From an uncultured Bacteroidales bacterium (GTDB lineage Bacteria; Bacteroidota; Bacteroidia; Bacteroidales; VadinHA17), in contig CAWJQH010000005.1 in the NCBI GenBank assembly GCA_963844935.1, positions 587,058 through 651,057 on the forward strand: 64,000 bases of DNA, read 5' to 3'. The notes beneath the pieces were generated by a model. That model made no database searches and was not told where the DNA came from. It worked only from the letters and a program-made list of their open reading frames with translations. Shown piece by piece: positions 5,279-15,487 of the stretch. Each line of letters starts with the position of its first letter. The first letter of the stretch is position 1. The position numbers were made by a program, and so were the translations under genes.

Positions 5279-5365
5279 GCCCAGATGGCGAAATTGGTAG
5301 ACGCGCTAGTTTCAGGGACTAGTGTCAGCAATGATGTGCAGGTTCGAGTCCTGTTCTGGGCACCA
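5279..5365 (+). tRNA. tRNA-Leu (anticodon CAG), long variable arm, CCA encoded
   Basis: Acceptor GCCCAGA pairs with TCTGGGC. Anticodon stem CTAGT/ACTAG with loop TTCAGGG. T-loop GGTTCGAGTCC. Ends ACCA. Confidence 0.92.
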
Positions 5366-5449: not shown

Positions 5450-5533
5450 GCCCAGATGGTGAAATTGGTAGACACGCCAGCTTGAGGGGCTGGTGCCGGT
5501 TACGGTGTGCAAGTTCGAGTCTTGTTCTGGGCA
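5450..5533 (+). tRNA. tRNA-Leu (anticodon GAG), long variable arm, no encoded CCA
   Basis: Same acceptor stem as the first tRNA. Anticodon stem CCAGC/GCTGG with loop TTGAGGG. T-loop AGTTCGAGTCT. Confidence 0.92.
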
Positions 5534-5540
5534 CAAAAAA

Positions 5541-8687: not shown

Positions 8688-9818
8688 ATGGCAGTTTCAA
8701 AATCATCCGCAGCAAGCGGCAAGGGCTCATCAGGCAGGCTGATGTCGCTTGACGTATTCAGGGGCATGACCGTTGCCTTCATGATAATTGTGAATACTCC
8801 GGGCACCTGGAGCCACGTATTTGCCCCTCTCAGGCATGCCTCATGGCACGGGTGCACTCCGACTGACCTGGTCTTTCCTTCCTTCCTTTTTATATCCGGA
8901 GTGGCAATGTGGTATTCACTTCGCAAATATAACTTCGAGTTTTCAGGCCCTGCACTGTTCCGTATCCTGAGAAGGGTAGCGCTGATATTCATAGTCGGCC
9001 TTTTCCTGAACATCTTCCCCCGTTTTGCCCGTGATTATGACACATTGCGCATAATGGGAGTGCTTCAGAGAATTGCCCTGGCCTGGGGCCTGGGAGCTAT
9101 AGTAGTGCTGATGGTTAAACGCAATTATATCTGGATTGCCACTCTTATCCTTCTTTTTGGCTACTGGGCAATGATGTATTTCTTTGGTGGGACGGACCCG
9201 TACTCGCTCGAGGGAAACTTCGCCCGCCAGGTTGACCTTAAAATTCTGGGAGAGAAACATCTTTACGGGGGGTTTGGCGTTCCGTTCGATCCCGAGGGAC
9301 TCCTGAGCACAATTCCTGCTGTGGCTACTGTACTGCTGGGCTTCATGGCCGGCAACCTGATTAGCGGCCTTGGCTCATCGTGGAAAACAGTCGGATGGCT
9401 TGCCGTTACCGGTGCAGTGCTTATAGGAGCAGGGCTGTTATGGGGCCAGTATTTCCCGATCAACAAACCGATCTGGACAAGCTCATATGTCCTGTATGCA
9501 GGAGGTATCGGTATGATGGTGCTGGCGCTGCTGTTCATGATCGTTGATATCTGGGGGCTTAAGGGATGGACAGGCTTCTTCAACACCTTCGGAACCAATG
9601 CGCTCTTCACGTACGTCCTGGCCGGAATATGGACAAAGACAATGCTCAGCATCAAGATAGGCGAGGTTACCCTTTATAACTGGATATTCACCCATATCTG
9701 CAGCCCGCTCTTTGAAAACCAGAAGCTTGCAAGCCTCCTGTTCGCAATAATCCAGGTGACTATTATATGGGCCTTCGGATACATACTTTACCGCAGGAAG
9801 ATAATCATCAGGCTCTGA
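8688..9818 (+). CDS. HGSNAT-like transmembrane acyltransferase family protein (DUF1624/DUF5009 type)
   Basis: RLMSLDVFRGMTVAFMIIVNTPG...HASWHGCTPTDLVFPSFLF is the typical N-terminal signature of the heparan-alpha-glucosaminide N-acetyltransferase-like family. About 11 TM segments. Confidence 0.75.
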   Translation: MAVSKSSAASGKGSSGRLMSLDVFRGMTVAFMIIVNTPGTWSHVFAPLRHASWHGCTPTDLVFPSFLFISGVAMWYSLRKYNFEFSGPALFRILRRVALIFIVGLFLNIFPRFARDYDTLRIMGVLQRIALAWGLGAIVVLMVKRNYIWIATLILLFGYWAMMYFFGGTDPYSLEGNFARQVDLKILGEKHLYGGFGVPFDPEGLLSTIPAVATVLLGFMAGNLISGLGSSWKTVGWLAVTGAVLIGAGLLWGQYFPINKPIWTSSYVLYAGGIGMMVLALLFMIVDIWGLKGWTGFFNTFGTNALFTYVLAGIWTKTMLSIKIGEVTLYNWIFTHICSPLFENQKLASLLFAIIQVTIIWAFGYILYRRKIIIRL

Positions 9819-9819
9819 G

Positions 9820-11239
9820 ATGGATATAAGAACAACCGTAGAACAGGCCTTTCTGAAATGGAGAGGTACAGCGCCCGGAATAATAACACGGCTGCCTCAG
9901 TCAGGCTCTGACAGGGTATATTTCAGGTTGTTGTACGGTGATGAACATGTCATCGGAGCCTATAACCCGAGCCGCGAGGAGAACGATGCGTTCGTCGGAT
10001 TTTCAAATCATTTCAGGTCAAAGGGATTGCCGGTGCCTGAGATATATGTCTATTACCCTGATGATAGAGTTCTATTTTCTGGAAGATCTCGGCGATTCCA
10101 ATCTCTTTACATGGCTGGCACAACGTTCTGATGAAGAACGCTTTAATCAGGAGACCGAGGCACTCTTCCTCACTGTGGCTTCAGATCTTGTACGTATCCA
10201 GACTGAAGGGATCAGGGGACTTGACCTTACCCTGTGCTATCCTCACCGCAGCTTTGACAGGCAGAGCATGGTGTGGGACCTGAACTACTACAAGTATATG
10301 TTCCTGAAGCTTATTGGCGCACCGTTCAATGAGATAAAGCTTGAGCGCGATTTTGAGGCGCTGACCCGGTTTTTGCTCGATGCCGGGCAGGAGTATTTTC
10401 TCTTCCGCGATTTTCAAACCGCCAATATAATGATCAGGGATGGCAAGCCATGGTATATTGACTACCAGGGAGGCAGGCTCGGAGCTCCGCAATATGACAT
10501 TGCTTCGCTTGTGTATGACGGCAAGGCATATATTCCGTCTGGTATCAGGGAAAAGACAATGGAGCGCCACCTGGATCTCTTTGCAGCCGCAACCGGCAAA
10601 CCGAGGGAATCTCTGGCAAAGTATTCCGGCGCCTTTACATTGATAAGGCTGATGCAGGCGCTGGGAGCCTTCGGCTTCAGGGGTCTGCATGAAAACAAAC
10701 CAACTTTTTCGGAGAGCATTGTCCCGGCCGTAGAACTGATGAATGACCTTCTCGGAGGTGATAAGCTGCAAATCGACCTTCCGGAACTGAAAAAAGCCTC
10801 GGAATCAGTACCGCTCCAGAGAAAATACCATATCCTCTCTCATTATAAGGAATTGGTGAAAATAAATATTGAGAGCTTTTCCTATGTAAAGGGCAGGACC
10901 ATGAGTTATGATACAGGCAGTGGCTTTGTATTTGACTGCCGTGGTCTGCGCAATCCTGTTCTCGAATCTGACCTCAGGGAAAAGACCGGGCTCGACCCGG
11001 AAGTAGCTGAGTTCTTCGGTAATGATGACGAGGCTGTCGCCTTTGTCGGAGATTGCTCCAACATTATCCGTAATACACTGCCCATGATGAGAAGAAAAGG
11101 CATCCTCGAGATAAATGCGGCTTTCGGATGTGTCGGCGGTCAGCATCGGTCAGTATGGTGTGCCACCAGGGTTGCATCCATGCTCTCGGCAATGCCGGGA
11201 GCGACTGTGACAGTAAACCATACCGGGCTCGGCAAATGA
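9820..11239 (+). pseudogene. AmgK-like anomeric sugar kinase (APH fold) fused to a RapZ C-terminal domain, split by an apparent 1-nt frameshift near 10061-10070
   Basis: Frame 1 (9820-10131) gives the N-lobe (SGSDRVYFRL...ENDAFVGFSNHF...LPVPEIY). Frame 2 continues with YFLEDLGD, FRDFQTANIMI and IDYQGGRLGAPQYDIASL. The tail (from about 10850) matches the RapZ C-terminal domain. Dropping one base near 10064 would give a continuous ...YYPDDEFYFLEDLGD... This may be a true pseudogene or an assembly error. Confidence 0.7.
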
Positions 11240-11958
11240 AGGCCATGATCTTTGCTGCAGGCCTCGGCACAAGGCTTGGTGAGCTGAGCAGGGAGAAGCC
11301 AAAAGCCCTGGTGGACATAAACGGCAAAACAGCCCTGCGCCTTACAGTTGAGAAACTTTCGTCGGCAGGCTTTAATGACCTGATTGTCAATATCCATCAC
11401 CATCCGGCGCTAATGATGGAGGAGATTGAACATCTTCGCAGCGACGGATTCCGGATCACGGTTTCAGACGAAACCGACGAGCTCCTTGACACCGGAGGGG
11501 GCCTTATGAAAGCCCGTCATTTTTTTACTGACGGGCCATTTATCTGCTACAATGTGGATATATTTACTGATCTGGATCTCAGCGATATGTATCAAAAACA
11601 TCTCGCTTACGGAGCGCTGGCAACCCTGGCTGTAAGACACCGGCCGGGAAACAGATTCTATCTCGTTGATAAAACAGGGAGGATAAGGGGATGGCGAAAC
11701 GTTGCAACAAAGGAGGAGATAATCACCGTGAACAGCAGCAAAGGACTGGAAGAGATAGCATTCTCGGGAATACATGTGCTTTCGCCTGAAGTATTTGATA
11801 AGATGCCGGCTGGAATATACACTATGACATCACTGTATCTGATGCTGGCCGGCAAGAATCAAATAATGACGTATCGTCATGATGAAGGTTACTGGTTCGA
11901 CTGCGGCACTCCTGCCAACCTTGAGAGGATAAGGGATTATCTGAACAGTCCCCGTTAA
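11236..11958 (+). CDS. MurU-like sugar-1-phosphate nucleotidyltransferase (N-acetylmuramate-1-P uridylyltransferase family)
   Basis: MKAMIFAAGLGTRLGELSREKPKALV nucleotidyltransferase N-terminus. ATGA start/stop overlap with the kinase gene. The longer ORF-track start (11128) lies inside the kinase gene. Confidence 0.8.
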   Translation: MKAMIFAAGLGTRLGELSREKPKALVDINGKTALRLTVEKLSSAGFNDLIVNIHHHPALMMEEIEHLRSDGFRITVSDETDELLDTGGGLMKARHFFTDGPFICYNVDIFTDLDLSDMYQKHLAYGALATLAVRHRPGNRFYLVDKTGRIRGWRNVATKEEIITVNSSKGLEEIAFSGIHVLSPEVFDKMPAGIYTMTSLYLMLAGKNQIMTYRHDEGYWFDCGTPANLERIRDYLNSPR

Positions 11959-12010: not shown

Positions 12011-12940
12011 TTACATCCATTTCTTCCTTCTGATCAGCAGCACCCCCACGGTGGCCAGGATAGCTGATCCTCCCAGGATGAACCAGAATGCGTTCATGCT
12101 GTTCTCCAACCTGTTGGGAACATTCATGCCGTAAATACTGGCTACCAGTGTCGGGATCATCAGAATGATTGTAATTATGGTGAGTGATTTCATCACAATG
12201 TTCAGGTTGTTTGAGATGACGGAGGCGAAGGCATCCATCATACCGCTCTGGATGTCGCTGTAAATCTTTGCCATCTCGATAGCCTGCCTGTTCTCAATTG
12301 TAGCTTCGTCAAGGAGGTCGGCCGAGAACTCATAGTCACGTATCCATTTCGAGTTCTTCAGCTTGAGCATCATCATCTCGTTTGATCTCAGCGAGGTCGT
12401 GAAATAGACAAGGCATTTTTCCATCTTCAGCAGCCTGTGCAACTCTTTGTTGCGCGTCGATTTTTCAAGATCCTGCTCTATCATGCCGGTCTGGTTGTTA
12501 ATCTGCTTCAGATACCTGTGATAGAACATCGTGGTCCTCAGAAAGAGATGAAGGATCAGATCAATCTTGTTCTCAATGGTTATCCCTTTCCCGCTCCGGC
12601 TGAAGAAATCGTCAAGCACCTCATTGTTCCTGTGACAGATGATCACAAGGTTATCTTTCTCAAGGACTATTCCGAGGGGTATTGTGGTGAACGGGAAACC
12701 GTTTGACTGATTCTGATAGGGAATACGGTAAATCATCAGCAGTATATCGTCCTCAATCTCCATCCTCGACCTCTCGTCAACGTCAAGTATATCAGCAAGA
12801 AAATCATCAGGTACCCTGAGTGTTGATTTAAGTATCCCTATCTCGGAAGGAGTAGGATCGGTGACGTTGACAATGCAGCCCTTTTCAAATGTGTTTAACG
12901 GAAGGAGACCGTTCGGGATCATCTGCCAGTAAGTAATCAT
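12011..12940 (-). CDS. corA: CorA-family magnesium/cobalt transporter
   Basis: C-terminal YGMNV (GMN) motif followed by two TM helices. The ATG at 12940 is preceded by GAGGAGG. Confidence 0.85.
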   Translation of the reverse strand: MITYWQMIPNGLLPLNTFEKGCIVNVTDPTPSEIGILKSTLRVPDDFLADILDVDERSRMEIEDDILLMIYRIPYQNQSNGFPFTTIPLGIVLEKDNLVIICHRNNEVLDDFFSRSGKGITIENKIDLILHLFLRTTMFYHRYLKQINNQTGMIEQDLEKSTRNKELHRLLKMEKCLVYFTTSLRSNEMMMLKLKNSKWIRDYEFSADLLDEATIENRQAIEMAKIYSDIQSGMMDAFASVISNNLNIVMKSLTIITIILMIPTLVASIYGMNVPNRLENSMNAFWFILGGSAILATVGVLLIRRKKWM

Positions 12941-13121
12941 TATAATACCTCCTCTTTTTAGTTCCACGGAGGTACCTGTTGCCAGTTTACCTCAGCAGAT
13001 AGAATTTAAAATTGCAGCTCGCGTGATAATCGTCCATAAAAGACAATAAATTGATATGTCTGCAAAAATATAACTTTTATAGATACCGCATCGGAGGTCA
13101 GAAAAAAATGTCTAAAAAAAT

Positions 13122-13129
13122 TAACTTTG
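13122..13129 (+). promoter_or_regulatory. putative -7 promoter element TAACTTTG for the polyamine operon
   Basis: Matches TAnnTTTG 24 nt upstream of the ATG at 13153. It lies inside the longer ORF-track start at 13051. Confidence 0.4.
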
Positions 13130-13152
13130 CGTATAACCTTCAAAAAAGAAAG

Positions 13153-14349
13153 ATGGGAAAAGTGTTAGTCATAGGCGCGGGAGGTGTCGGTACTGTTGTG
13201 GTTGATACAATGGCGCGGCTTCCGGAAGTCTTTACGGAAATCATGCTGGCAAGCCGCACGAAAGCAAAATGTGATATTATCGCAGAGCGCATCGGGAAGA
13301 ACAGGGTGCAGACCGCACAGGTTGACGCCGACAATGTGCCTGAACTGACAAACCTGATCAGATCATTCAAACCCGATCTTGTTGTCAATGTTGCCTTGCC
13401 TTACCAGGACCTGCATATAATGGATGCGTGTCTTGCAGCGGGGGTTGCCTATCTCGATACTGCTAACTATGAGCCGCCCGAGGAAGCTAAATATGCATAC
13501 TCATGGCAATGGGCATATCATGACCGCTTCCGTGAAGCGGGACTGACTGCCATCCTTGGCTGCGGCTTTGACCCCGGGGTTACAAGCGTCTTCACTGCAT
13601 ATGCTGCCAAACACCACTTCAGCGAGATACACTATCTCGATATCGTGGACTGCAATGCCGGTGACCACGGAAAGCCTTTCGCCACTAACTTCAATCCTGA
13701 AATCAACATTCGCGAAGTGACCCAGAAAGGCAAATACTGGGAGGATGGCAGATGGGTGACCACGGAGCCGCACGAGATACACAAACCCCTTACATACCCG
13801 GAGATAGGCCCTAAAGAATCTTATCTCATCTATCATGAGGAGCTGGAGTCACTTGTTAAAAACTTCCCTACAATAAGGCGTGCGCGTTTCTGGATGACCT
13901 TCGGCCAGGAATACCTGACCCACCTGAGGGTGATACAGAATATCGGCATGGCACGCATAGACCCGGTGATGTATAACGGCGTTGAAATAATCCCCATCCA
14001 GTTCCTCAAGGCTGTCCTGCCCAATCCCGGGGATCTTGGAGAGAACTATAAAGGCTGGACATCAATCGGATGCCGCATTAAAGGCATATCCAAGGAAGGC
14101 AAGGAAATGACATACTACATCTGGAACAACTGCAGTCACGAGGAGGCATACAGGGAGACCGGCACGCAGGCAGTGAGTTTTACAACAGGAGTGCCTGCAG
14201 CCATCGGAGCCATGATGTATATGAAGGGGCTGTGGAAAAACCCCGGTGTCTGGAACGTGGAGCAGTTTGACCCTGACCCGTTCATGACAGAGCTCAACAG
14301 GCTCGGCCTGCCATGGCATGAAAAATTTGACATCGACCTGGAGCTGTAA
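13153..14349 (+). CDS. carboxynorspermidine/carboxyspermidine dehydrogenase (saccharopine dehydrogenase family)
   Basis: MGKVLVIGAGGVGTVV Rossmann N-terminus, about 398 aa, followed directly by nspC. Confidence 0.85.
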   Translation: MGKVLVIGAGGVGTVVVDTMARLPEVFTEIMLASRTKAKCDIIAERIGKNRVQTAQVDADNVPELTNLIRSFKPDLVVNVALPYQDLHIMDACLAAGVAYLDTANYEPPEEAKYAYSWQWAYHDRFREAGLTAILGCGFDPGVTSVFTAYAAKHHFSEIHYLDIVDCNAGDHGKPFATNFNPEINIREVTQKGKYWEDGRWVTTEPHEIHKPLTYPEIGPKESYLIYHEELESLVKNFPTIRRARFWMTFGQEYLTHLRVIQNIGMARIDPVMYNGVEIIPIQFLKAVLPNPGDLGENYKGWTSIGCRIKGISKEGKEMTYYIWNNCSHEEAYRETGTQAVSFTTGVPAAIGAMMYMKGLWKNPGVWNVEQFDPDPFMTELNRLGLPWHEKFDIDLEL

Positions 14350-14350
14350 T

Positions 14351-15487
14351 ATGATCGATTACCAGAGTGTTCCGTCACCATGCTATGTCATCGACGAGGA
14401 ACGTCTGCGCCGCAACCTGGAGCTGATAAGACACGTGTCACAGGCTTCGGGAGCAGAGATAATCCTTGCTTTCAAGGGCTTTGCCATGTGGTCTGTGTTT
14501 CCCGTGGTGCGTGAGTATGTATCAGGGGCAGCTGCGAGCTCCATACACGAAGCCAGGCTCTGCTTTGAGGAGATGGGAGTACCGGCACATACATACGCTC
14601 CTGCCTTCCGCAGTGAGGAGTTCGGTATGATACTGCGGTACAGTTCGCACGTCACATTCAACTCCCTCGCCCAATATGAAAAATTTGCACCTGTTCTAAG
14701 ACAGGAGGGTAAACATATCTCGGCCGGCCTCCGCATAAACCCGCAGTACTCGGAGATAGCGCAGGGTATTTACAATCCCTGCTCACCCGGCTCACGCCTG
14801 GGGGTCACCGCTGCCGAACTGGAAAATGGTCTGCCGGAAGGAGTGGAGGGATTGCATTTTCATGTACTCTTTGAGTCAGATTCCTTTGTACTTGAAAAGG
14901 TACTGAAGGTGGTGGAAGCAAACTTCGGACACCTGCTTCCCGGCCTTAAGTGGCTGAATATGGGAGGCGGCCACCTGATGACACGAAAAGGCTATGACAC
15001 CGAACACCTGATAAACCTTCTCCGCAGGTTCAGGGAGAAGCACGGCGTTCACATCATACTTGAACCGGGGAGCGCCTTTGCCTGGGAGACAGGCGAACTG
15101 GTGGCCACGGTCGAGGATATAGTGGTGCGCGACGGCATCAGCACCGCAATACTTGATGTATCGTTCACCGCTCACATGCCTGACTGCCTTGAGATGCCAT
15201 ATAAACCGGTAATACTCGGGGCTTTTGAACCTGTCGAAGGAAAACCTGTGTACCGTCTGGGAGGCAACTCCTGCCTTTCAGGCGACTTCATGGGCGACTG
15301 GTCGTTTCACCGAGAGCTGAAAAGGGGCGACAGGATAATCTTCTGGGATATGATCCACTACACAATGGTTAAGACAACCACCTTCAACGGTGTGCCTCAC
15401 CCTTCAATAGGTATTTGGACAGGGGATCAGAAGTTCAGACTGGTGAGGGAGTTCGGGTACAATGATTACCGGGACAGGCTCTCTTAA
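14351..15487 (+). CDS. nspC: carboxynorspermidine decarboxylase
   Basis: MIDYQSVPSPCYVIDEERLRRNLE N-terminus and a fold-III PLP decarboxylase pattern. Starts 2 nt after the dehydrogenase stop. Confidence 0.85.
   Translation: MIDYQSVPSPCYVIDEERLRRNLELIRHVSQASGAEIILAFKGFAMWSVFPVVREYVSGAAASSIHEARLCFEEMGVPAHTYAPAFRSEEFGMILRYSSHVTFNSLAQYEKFAPVLRQEGKHISAGLRINPQYSEIAQGIYNPCSPGSRLGVTAAELENGLPEGVEGLHFHVLFESDSFVLEKVLKVVEANFGHLLPGLKWLNMGGGHLMTRKGYDTEHLINLLRRFREKHGVHIILEPGSAFAWETGELVATVEDIVVRDGISTAILDVSFTAHMPDCLEMPYKPVILGAFEPVEGKPVYRLGGNSCLSGDFMGDWSFHRELKRGDRIIFWDMIHYTMVKTTTFNGVPHPSIGIWTGDQKFRLVREFGYNDYRDRLS

Follow-up and report, generated by a model that had tools for sequence, protein, structure and literature searches.

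The stretch of DNA analysed here (the window) comprises 64,000 nucleotides from an uncultured Bacteroidales bacterium (GTDB lineage VadinHA17; assembly GCA_963844935.1, contig CAWJQH010000005.1, positions 587,058 to 651,057). It carries a tight cluster of three genes, encoding a NagX-like membrane protein, a kinase of the APH fold that resembles AmgK, and a MurU-like sugar-1-phosphate nucleotidyltransferase; the kinase is followed, in the same gene, by RapZ's C-terminal domain (RapZ_C, PF22740). RapZ plays a central part in regulating the supply of cell-envelope precursors. The fusion of its C-terminal domain to an AmgK-like kinase is genuine, ancient and widespread, and it places the domain within a candidate salvage route for the amino sugars of the cell wall.

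Translation of positions 10850-11239 gives ELVKINIESFSYVKGRTMSYDTGSGFVFDCRGLRNPVLESDLREKTGLDPEVAEFF...AAFGCVGGQHRSVWCATRVASMLSAMPGATVTVNHTGLGK*, in exact agreement with the peptide quoted in an earlier note on this DNA, which had read the tail as a RapZ C-terminal domain that follows an APH-fold kinase instead of the P-loop domain of RapZ; both parts of that reading are borne out. The last 129 residues of the open reading frame (ORF) 9938-11239 on the forward strand, encoded by 10850-11236, matched PF22740 with 97.4 bits (E 8.5e-28; residues 4-125 against profile positions 2-118 of 121), far above the gathering score of 27. Among the sequences of the PDB, phmmer retrieved only E. coli RapZ, with 5o5s, the C-terminal domain (CTD) structure, at E 3.6e-13, followed by 5o5o and 5o5q. 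The AlphaFold model (AF2) of the last 135 residues (predicted local distance difference test score, pLDDT, 88.9) was aligned by Foldseek to RapZ-CTD 5o5s with template modelling (TM) scores of 0.83/0.91, a root-mean-square deviation of 1.8 Å and 33% identity, and all 17 significant Foldseek matches of the isolated domain in the PDB were RapZ. Beyond RapZ, this search returned only non-significant matches to phosphofructokinase (E > 1, TM approximately 0.4) and to GPN-loop proteins; the fructose-6-phosphate-binding subdomain of 6-phosphofructokinase thus differs from the RapZ_C model in giving no significant structural match. The identity of the domain as RapZ_C is far above chance level.

The C-terminal domain belongs to the RapZ_C family, yet the protein as a whole is no RapZ. 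It lacks the Walker A/B P-loop NTPase domain, the N-terminal 340 amino acids being an APH-fold kinase, and also the basic RNA-binding tail of the enterobacterial proteins, since the C-terminus reads VNHTGLGK, without a KRK cluster. The NCBIfam model NF003828 (“RNase adapter RapZ”) reached 92.7 bits against a cut-off of 244 and was matched over model positions 111-276 only. Because the P-loop domain and the RNA tail are absent and NF003828 stays below its cut-off, the NCBI label “RNase adapter RapZ” on some relatives is a misnomer; annotation is at stake here, as some such kinases now carry this name.

The kinase part can be called AmgK-like by its fold, its catalytic motifs and its adjacency to a MurU-like gene. 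Pfam APH matched the ORF of the window with 24 bits, and PF01636 is precomputed for every full-length relative; in Foldseek the best match was 3csv (E 4e-12), followed by many APH-family kinases. D197, N202 and D214 are invariant in the alignment, and the motifs FRDFQTAN and IDYQGG, invariant across 83 relatives, are both present in the window. The best NCBIfam matches were the two AmgK models, with 49.1 bits (cut-off 550) and 41.9 bits (cut-off 500). Of the anomeric amino-sugar kinase proposed in the earlier note, the APH fold and AmgK as nearest family therefore stand; the score lies below the equivalog level, and the enzyme is AmgK-like rather than a demonstrated orthologue.

The earlier note missed that the copy of the fusion gene in the window is broken. 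The frame shifts after codon 83, in the kinase N-lobe; the ORF of the N-lobe ends at 10131, and the remainder lies in ORF 9938-11239. A DNA alignment with the relative L001, approximately 91% identical over the gene and 96% across the aligned 160-nucleotide segment, places an extra T at 10070/10071; deletion of one T restores an ORF of 1419 nucleotides, with no further lesion. Between the window and L001, the ratio of non-synonymous to synonymous substitution rates (dN/dS) was 0.05 for RapZ_C and 0.04 for the kinase, at a dS of 0.40; RapZ_C is under strong purifying selection in the window clade. Since the extra T is the sole lesion and dN/dS is unrelaxed, the indel is either an error made in sequencing or assembly or an inactivation of very recent date. 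A genuine frameshift, with the consequence that no functional kinase or fused domain is made in this genome, is conceivable if rather doubtful. It would be consistent with the break past codon 83 and the early stop of the N-lobe ORF, with the close relatives, all of them unbroken proteins of 472 amino acids, and with the rest of the window, which is densely coding, has long ORFs and displays no obvious widespread indel errors. It is opposed by the single lesion, by the two halves being otherwise open and 95% identical in protein to the relative P0001, by the low dN/dS of 0.05, and by the fact that assemblies commonly miscount a short run of T by one nucleotide.

Within the cluster (Table 1), the ATG of the murU-like gene (11236) overlaps the TGA of the fusion gene (11237-11239) as ATGA, and the identical four-nucleotide overlap occurs in L001; the close link to a MurU-like gene that the earlier note had pointed out is thereby confirmed, and the association of RapZ_C, kinase and uridylyltransferase extends across phyla, as detailed below. 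The MurU-like protein scored 120.6 bits with the NCBIfam MurU model, against a cut-off of 250; the next matches were other sugar-1-phosphate nucleotidyltransferases. Upstream, the NagX-like gene is probably co-transcribed with the kinase and MurU-like genes, because its stop lies 1 nucleotide before the kinase start, the ATG at 9820. Its product had no Pfam match; the gene is kept at the upstream position in L002, with 71% identity, as well as in L082 and L084, the syntenic loci. A gene for a fusion of a glycoside hydrolase family 3 (GH3) enzyme and a beta-lactamase-like domain is transcribed divergently from the salvage cluster and adds to a context of cell-wall recycling. Neither a second RapZ_C copy nor a canonical rapZ was found within the 64-kb window, and GlmY and GlmZ had no Rfam match in it.

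Table 1. Coordinates of the AmgK-like-RapZ_C gene, its parts and its neighbours in the window.
Feature	Position	Strand	Basis or remark
GH3 beta-N-acetylhexosaminidase (NagZ-like) fused to beta-lactamase/PBP4B-like domain, 996 amino acids	5627..8617	-	NCBIfam; L082 and L084 carry the same fusion in the same position
NagX-like polytopic membrane protein (putative glucosamine N-acetyltransferase)	8688..9818	+	NCBIfam NagX_SO_3504, 159 bits against cut-off 480
AmgK-like-RapZ_C gene, whole	9820-11239	+	Two frames; 1419-nucleotide ORF once one T is removed
Kinase N-lobe, codons 1-83, in the frame of ORF 9820-10131	9820..10069	+	Residue-for-residue alignment with N-termini of 472-amino-acid relatives (MDIRTTVEQAF...PEIYVYYPDDR)
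Site of the frameshift (TT run with one T too many)	10070..10071	+	GAGTTCTAT in the window, GAG-TCTAT in relative L001
Remaining APH-fold kinase and helical linker	10071..10849	+	Pfam APH, Foldseek, invariant residues
LEDLGD	10079-10096	+	Kinase motif
Catalytic loop FRDFQTAN	10403-10426	+	Kinase motif
Mg-binding IDYQGG	10457-10474	+	Kinase motif
RapZ C-terminal domain (RapZ_C, PF22740)	10850..11236	+	Pfam, PDB sequence match, model fold, dN/dS
NPVL	10952..10963	+	Counterpart of E. coli N188-P189-H190-W191; H190 replaced by Val
Phosphate-binding loop FGCVGGQHRSV	11123..11155	+	Corresponds to E. coli RapZ I245-V255
MurU-like sugar-1-phosphate nucleotidyltransferase	11236..11958	+	Pfam NTP_transferase, 63 bits; best NCBIfam match MurU

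The combination of kinase and RapZ_C was found in many independent sequences. A protein search with the frame-repaired query, in which clusters at 90% identity were counted, yielded approximately 77 clusters of 470-473 amino acids that carry PF01636 and PF22740, with identities from 95% down to 45%; where a source organism was named, it was a metagenome-assembled genome (MAG) of Bacteroidales or Bacteroidota. A genome scan with two motifs of the domain, covering one genome per GTDB species, gave at least 598 confirmed stretches, and the best 80 loci were analysed. In 69 of these 80 RapZ_C is directly preceded by a kinase, which in 52 unambiguously shares its ORF, in 57 a murU-like gene follows RapZ_C within 1 kb, and 55 have both; canonical P-loop RapZ accounted for five loci (Rhodobacteraceae, SAR116), lone RapZ_C genes of 130-150 amino acids for four, and RapZ_C with a downstream murU-like gene but no kinase directly upstream for two. 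The fusion occurs in the cultured isolates Parabacteroides chinchillae DSM 29073 and Carboxylicivirga sp. A043, in Bacteroidota MAGs of Tannerella sp., Muribaculaceae, Bacteroidaceae, Prolixibacteraceae and Chitinophagaceae, and, elsewhere, in MAGs of Ignavibacteria, Acidobacteriota, Elusimicrobia, Spirochaetales, Verrucomicrobia, Calditrichia, Gemmatimonadaceae and Bdellovibrionales; the closest genome among the matches listed was Bacteroidales bacterium UBA4772 (L002). The fusion thus spans at least eight other phyla or lineages beyond Bacteroidales, and its assignment in the earlier note to “this lineage” was too narrow.

An exhaustive phmmer search with the domain alone against 1.84 billion representatives at 50% identity returned 2507 matches at E <= 1e-3. 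Among the best 150 of these 2507, the architecture kinase-RapZ_C was found in 91, the triple fusion kinase-RapZ_C-MurU in seven and RapZ_C-MurU in four; 34 were short proteins of less than 200 amino acids, and 14 had other architectures, including canonical RapZ and HEAT-RapZ_C. Among the nearest RapZ_C domains, fusion to a kinase is more common than any other context, and in fused and separate genes alike the parts follow the order kinase, RapZ_C, uridylyltransferase without exception. That the fusion is an artefact, produced by an overlooked stop or a frameshift between two separate genes, as the earlier note had considered, is ruled out by the many independent assemblies, the isolate genomes, the triple fusions and the purifying selection; the only frameshift sits elsewhere, in the kinase N-lobe. 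The architecture search proposed in that note recovers an arrangement already catalogued in Pfam domain lists and under the NCBI names “RapZ C-terminal domain-containing protein” and “RNase adapter RapZ”, and full-text literature searches found no paper that connects RapZ, YvcJ, YhbJ or PF22740 with AmgK, MurU or an anomeric kinase. The architecture is known to databases and undescribed in the literature found; it is widespread, uncharacterised and partly mis-annotated.

Some RapZ_C loci depart from this pattern. In the pair P0160 (570 amino acids) and P0264 (718 amino acids), one protein has HEAT repeats followed by RapZ_C, and the other a 3'-5' exonuclease (DNA_pol_A_exo1), an APH kinase and then RapZ_C. 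Stand-alone RapZ_C genes without a kinase or murU neighbour occur in Riemerella anatipestifer (L051, 5986-6399), where its start coincides with the stop of the gene for a peptide-chain release factor, and in Kiritimatiellia (L004, L006, L008), where it is surrounded by restriction, Fic and Schlafen-like genes; Epilithonimonas (L068) has a stand-alone RapZ_C that precedes a murU-like gene. In some rumen Bacteroidales (L003, 6518-8016; L017, 6537-8069) the fused gene is followed by genes for a protein of 213-229 amino acids, without Pfam match, and for a DUF3822 protein, not by murU. At a further fused locus without murU (L009), the adjoining gene encodes an unrelated class I tRNA synthetase; no alternative partner was found at L003, L017 or L009.

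The nearest relatives of the kinase domain (55-59% identity) are kinases of 341-356 amino acids without RapZ_C. Two related Bacteroidales (L082 and L084) have a neighbourhood like that of the window, with the GH3-beta-lactamase fusion on the opposite strand, a membrane protein of 369-370 amino acids in the NagX-like position, a kinase of 343-346 amino acids lacking RapZ_C, and an NTP_transferase gene that starts approximately 70-125 nucleotides after the kinase ends; further downstream lie TrkH (CorA-like in the window) and then carboxynorspermidine synthase and decarboxylase. In a simple neighbour-joining tree of the kinase domain with bootstrap, the stand-alone kinases form the sister group of the window clade (88% support) and are nested in fused proteins (100%), lying among those of other Bacteroidota and other phyla. 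Because of this nested position, the sister clade has lost RapZ_C secondarily; since it keeps the operon after the loss, the pair of kinase and transferase can work without the domain. RapZ_C is accessory, yet under selection where it is kept.

The pocket of the domain was examined in an alignment of 306 RapZ_C domains of all architectures, numbered after E. coli RapZ; 218 of them are kinase-fused. In E. coli, H190, T248, G249, H252 and R253 form the sulfate/malonate pocket of the RapZ-CTD (PMC5737377), which is the proposed site of glucosamine-6-phosphate (GlcN6P) and contacts RNA backbone phosphates in the RapZ-GlmZ complex (PMC9841335). The E. coli counterpart of the loop FGCVGGQHRSV holds the pocket residues T248, G249, H252 and R253, with C247 adjacent, and the loop GC(T/V)GGxHRS is near-invariant across the 306 domains, with position 251 variable. 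In the fused domains, F167, G246 and G250 are present in all 218, D182, R184, G200 and S254 in 217 each, R253 and V255 in 216 each, C247 in 215 (Ser in the other three), P189 and H252 in 214 each, G249 in 213, N188 in 209 and T199 in 190, and position 248 is T or V in 204. In the window the loop is intact: G249, H252 and R253 are kept, T248, which makes its contact via the backbone, is replaced by Val, and one side-chain ligand is lost by the replacement of H190 with Val. Judged from these residues, the phosphate pocket is mostly kept in the fused domains.

Compared with the CTD of E. coli RapZ (YhbJ; structures 5O5S, 5O5O, 8B0I), the fused domain has the same fold, belongs to the same Pfam family and keeps the GCxGGxHRSV loop, the FDxR motif with the dimer-interface Asp, and the NP and TG(L)D motifs; both proteins are tied to amino-sugar and cell-envelope precursor metabolism. 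In contrast to E. coli RapZ, the fusion has the APH-fold kinase in place of the Walker A/B P-loop domain and no basic RNA tail; His190-Trp191 is replaced by Val-Leu in the window and by Gly-Arg/Lys in most fused forms, and the fusion is partnered in the genome by a MurU-like uridylyltransferase instead of the rpoN operon, RNase E or GlmY/GlmZ. The E. coli RapZ-CTD alone binds GlcN6P with a dissociation constant of 10 nM and through this binding exerts control over the de novo GlmS route; it also dimerises, and the exchange D182A abolishes CTD self-interaction (PMC7073468). The pocket has been reported as conserved in RapZ homologues of diverse bacteria; the RNA-binding tail (consensus RxRxKNxQxRHRTxxKRK, PMC7525490; residues K270, K281, R282 and K283) and GlmY/GlmZ are restricted to Enterobacteriaceae.

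The second point of comparison is the pathway in which AmgK and MurU turn N-acetylmuramic acid (MurNAc), and also N-acetylglucosamine (GlcNAc), via the alpha-1-phosphate into uridine diphosphate (UDP) sugars, bypassing de novo synthesis. It is known from Pseudomonas putida, P. aeruginosa, Caulobacter and Legionella, and has been reported in Tannerella forsythia, a member of Bacteroidia (PMC7670621, PMC13046382). The window shares with it the order of an APH-fold kinase gene and an NTP_transferase gene, and the context of cell-wall recycling, with NagZ-like and NagX-like genes nearby; it differs in that the NCBIfam AmgK models, of 324 and 360 positions, describe a single kinase domain, and in that the scores of both window proteins (49 for AmgK and 121 for MurU) are far under the equivalog cut-offs. 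The AmgK papers examined make no mention of a RapZ-type domain, and a protein search from the fusion of the Tannerella sp. MAG returned as named matches only Tannerella sp. and Tannerellaceae MAGs, none of them T. forsythia.

A further parallel is offered by YvcJ, the RapZ-like protein of Bacillus subtilis, which binds UDP-GlcNAc and whose gene adjoins glmR, encoding an accessory GlcNAc-1-phosphate uridylyltransferase (PMC7525490, PMC13046274); NTPase and phosphatase activities have been reported for YvcJ (PMC7525490). As in the fusion, a kinase-fold or nucleotide-binding domain and RapZ_C stand beside an amino-sugar-1-phosphate uridylyltransferase; the YvcJ-GlmR system responds to a UDP-amino sugar. 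The partner domains are, in contrast, non-homologous: a P-loop NTPase instead of APH, and the CofD-like GlmR (YvcK) instead of a MurU of the NTP_transferase fold. This parallel between YvcJ-GlmR and the fusion is suggested here and is not a published link.

Taken together, RapZ_C may be an accessory, regulatory or hand-over module of the AmgK/MurU salvage route that binds a phospho-amino sugar; on present sequence evidence the chances of this role appear about even. Placed between kinase and uridylyltransferase, the domain would bind GlcN6P, MurNAc-6-phosphate, a sugar-1-phosphate or a UDP-amino sugar, sensing amino-sugar status or holding the phosphorylated intermediate or product of the pathway itself; it would tune the route from kinase to uridylyltransferase that makes UDP-MurNAc or UDP-GlcNAc, or hand over its intermediate. 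In this way it could inform the salvage route of amino-sugar status, just as the RapZ-CTD of E. coli informs the de novo route of GlcN6P. The domain probably also dimerises the enzyme via the conserved CTD interface. Ligand binding or catalysis by the domain, and a bearing on the ancestral function of RapZ, are putative. Several observations weigh against the proposed role. The substrates of kinase and transferase are taken from context, because both enzymes score below the NCBIfam cut-offs for AmgK and MurU, and 14 of the 69 kinase-linked loci among the best 80 have no murU-like gene within 1 kb. H190 is not kept: of the 218 fused domains, 160 have Gly at this position, and the window has Val; since it is replaced, ligand specificity must differ from that of E. 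coli RapZ. At position 191, 163 of the 218 have Arg or Lys, canonical RapZ having His/Tyr-Trp at 190-191; in the sub-clade of the window, which has Val-Leu, the G-(R/K) pair that most fused domains have is missing as well. Binding of UDP-GlcNAc by YvcJ requires the Walker A lysine of the P-loop, which is absent in the kinase-RapZ_C fusion. The model of the full-length fusion has a predicted TM-score (pTM) of 0.71, and the inter-domain arrangement is therefore only moderately confident. Finally, that Cys, His, Arg and Ser are near-invariant in the loop is as compatible with catalysis as with binding.

This last observation leads to the alternative that RapZ_C performs a third salvage step on a phosphorylated amino sugar by means of its C-x5-R-S loop (C-V-G-G-Q-H-R-S), for example as a MupP-like MurNAc-6-phosphate phosphatase feeding the kinase, as a phosphomutase, or in some other transformation; such an enzyme is the main rival reading, though a somewhat unlikely one. 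The loop Cys, His, Arg and Ser, together with D182, R184 and N188, are kept in approximately 96-100% of the 218 fused domains and also in canonical RapZ, a degree of conservation seen more often in active sites than in binding pockets, and in the model the C-x5-R-S loop is flanked by a strand and a helix. Catalysis would also be in keeping with the report of phosphatase activity for YvcJ, the Pseudomonas pathway needs the MurNAc-6-phosphate phosphatase MupP, and the domain sits between two enzymes of one pathway, in the triple fusions within a single polypeptide. The domain has also been speculated to be a repurposed metabolic enzyme, and an unexplained “chemically transformed product” of GlcN6P has been described in RapZ-CTD crystals (PMC9841335). 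However, no enzymatic activity has been assigned to RapZ_C, and E. coli RapZ keeps the same residues while it binds GlcN6P and RNA backbone phosphates; Ser replaces Cys in one fused relative (P0077) and in three of the 218 fused domains overall, and the sister clade dropped the domain and kept the operon. Foldseek, finding RapZ only, recovered no tyrosine-phosphatase, low-molecular-weight (LMW) phosphatase, ArsC or other hydrolase fold. Homology of the C-x5-R-S loop to protein-tyrosine and LMW phosphatases, ArsC and PTS-EIIB is rejected by this result, and the resemblance is local only.

A mainly structural role, in which RapZ_C dimerises or tetramerises the kinase, docks the MurU-like enzyme, or both, and has no small-molecule function, is improbable. 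The dimers of E. coli RapZ-CTD and the effect of D182A, whose equivalent Asp is present in all but one of the fused domains, agree with it, the fixed position between kinase and transferase would fit a scaffold, and the loss in the sister clade demonstrates that catalysis by the two enzymes is independent of RapZ_C; yet a domain that served as scaffold alone would have no need of an anion-binding loop so close to invariant, and the stand-alone copies in Riemerella and Kiritimatiellia have no kinase or transferase neighbours. Least credible by far is a function as in E. coli RapZ, with the domain binding a small RNA and presenting it to RNase E. It would draw on the same fold and on the same phosphate pocket that contacts the GlmZ backbone in E. 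coli (PMC9841335); against this, the basic tail is missing from a protein that ends in VNHTGLGK, the tail and GlmY/GlmZ are restricted to Enterobacteriaceae, neither GlmY nor GlmZ has an Rfam match in the window, and the partners here are enzymes, not RNase E.

In a wider and more tentative interpretation, RapZ_C could be an ancient phospho-amino-sugar module, either a sensor or an unrecognised enzyme, that stands between a kinase-fold domain and an amino-sugar-1-phosphate uridylyltransferase, and this could be its native and perhaps ancestral job. The AmgK-like-RapZ_C-MurU-like arrangement of Bacteroidota, Acidobacteriota, Ignavibacteria and others, and the YvcJ plus GlmR arrangement of Firmicutes, would then represent two non-homologous implementations, and the enterobacterial adaptor for small RNAs and RNase E a late exaptation of the phosphate pocket; if true, this would provide the first defined metabolic pathway in which to seek the natural ligand or substrate of the RapZ domain. 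The fusion of RapZ_C to two predicted enzymes of MurNAc/GlcNAc salvage across phyla supplies a concrete pathway for a non-enterobacterial role of the pocket, and this role is directly testable because the list of ligands is short (GlcN6P, MurNAc-6-phosphate, the 1-phosphates and the UDP-sugars). The fusion by itself would not astonish a specialist; it gives the question of the ancestral or non-enterobacterial function of RapZ a testable setting, with relevance to how gut and oral Bacteroidales recycle their cell walls, a process in which MurA/MurB can be bypassed by the AmgK/MurU route.

Elsewhere in the window, a gene for a CorA-like Mg/Co transporter (12011-12967, reverse strand) follows the salvage cluster, and a pair of overlapping ORFs (13051-15487, forward strand) encodes carboxynorspermidine synthase and decarboxylase for norspermidine/spermidine biosynthesis. 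The segment 46982-48623 contains no ORF of at least 150 amino acids; its smaller ORFs resemble, by eye, a RidA-like gene and genes of the ribosomal proteins S6, S18 and L9, and it looks ordinary. Two tandem tRNA-Leu genes (5279-5365 and 5450-5534, forward strand), with the anticodons CAG and GAG, are the sole Rfam/ARAGORN matches in the window.

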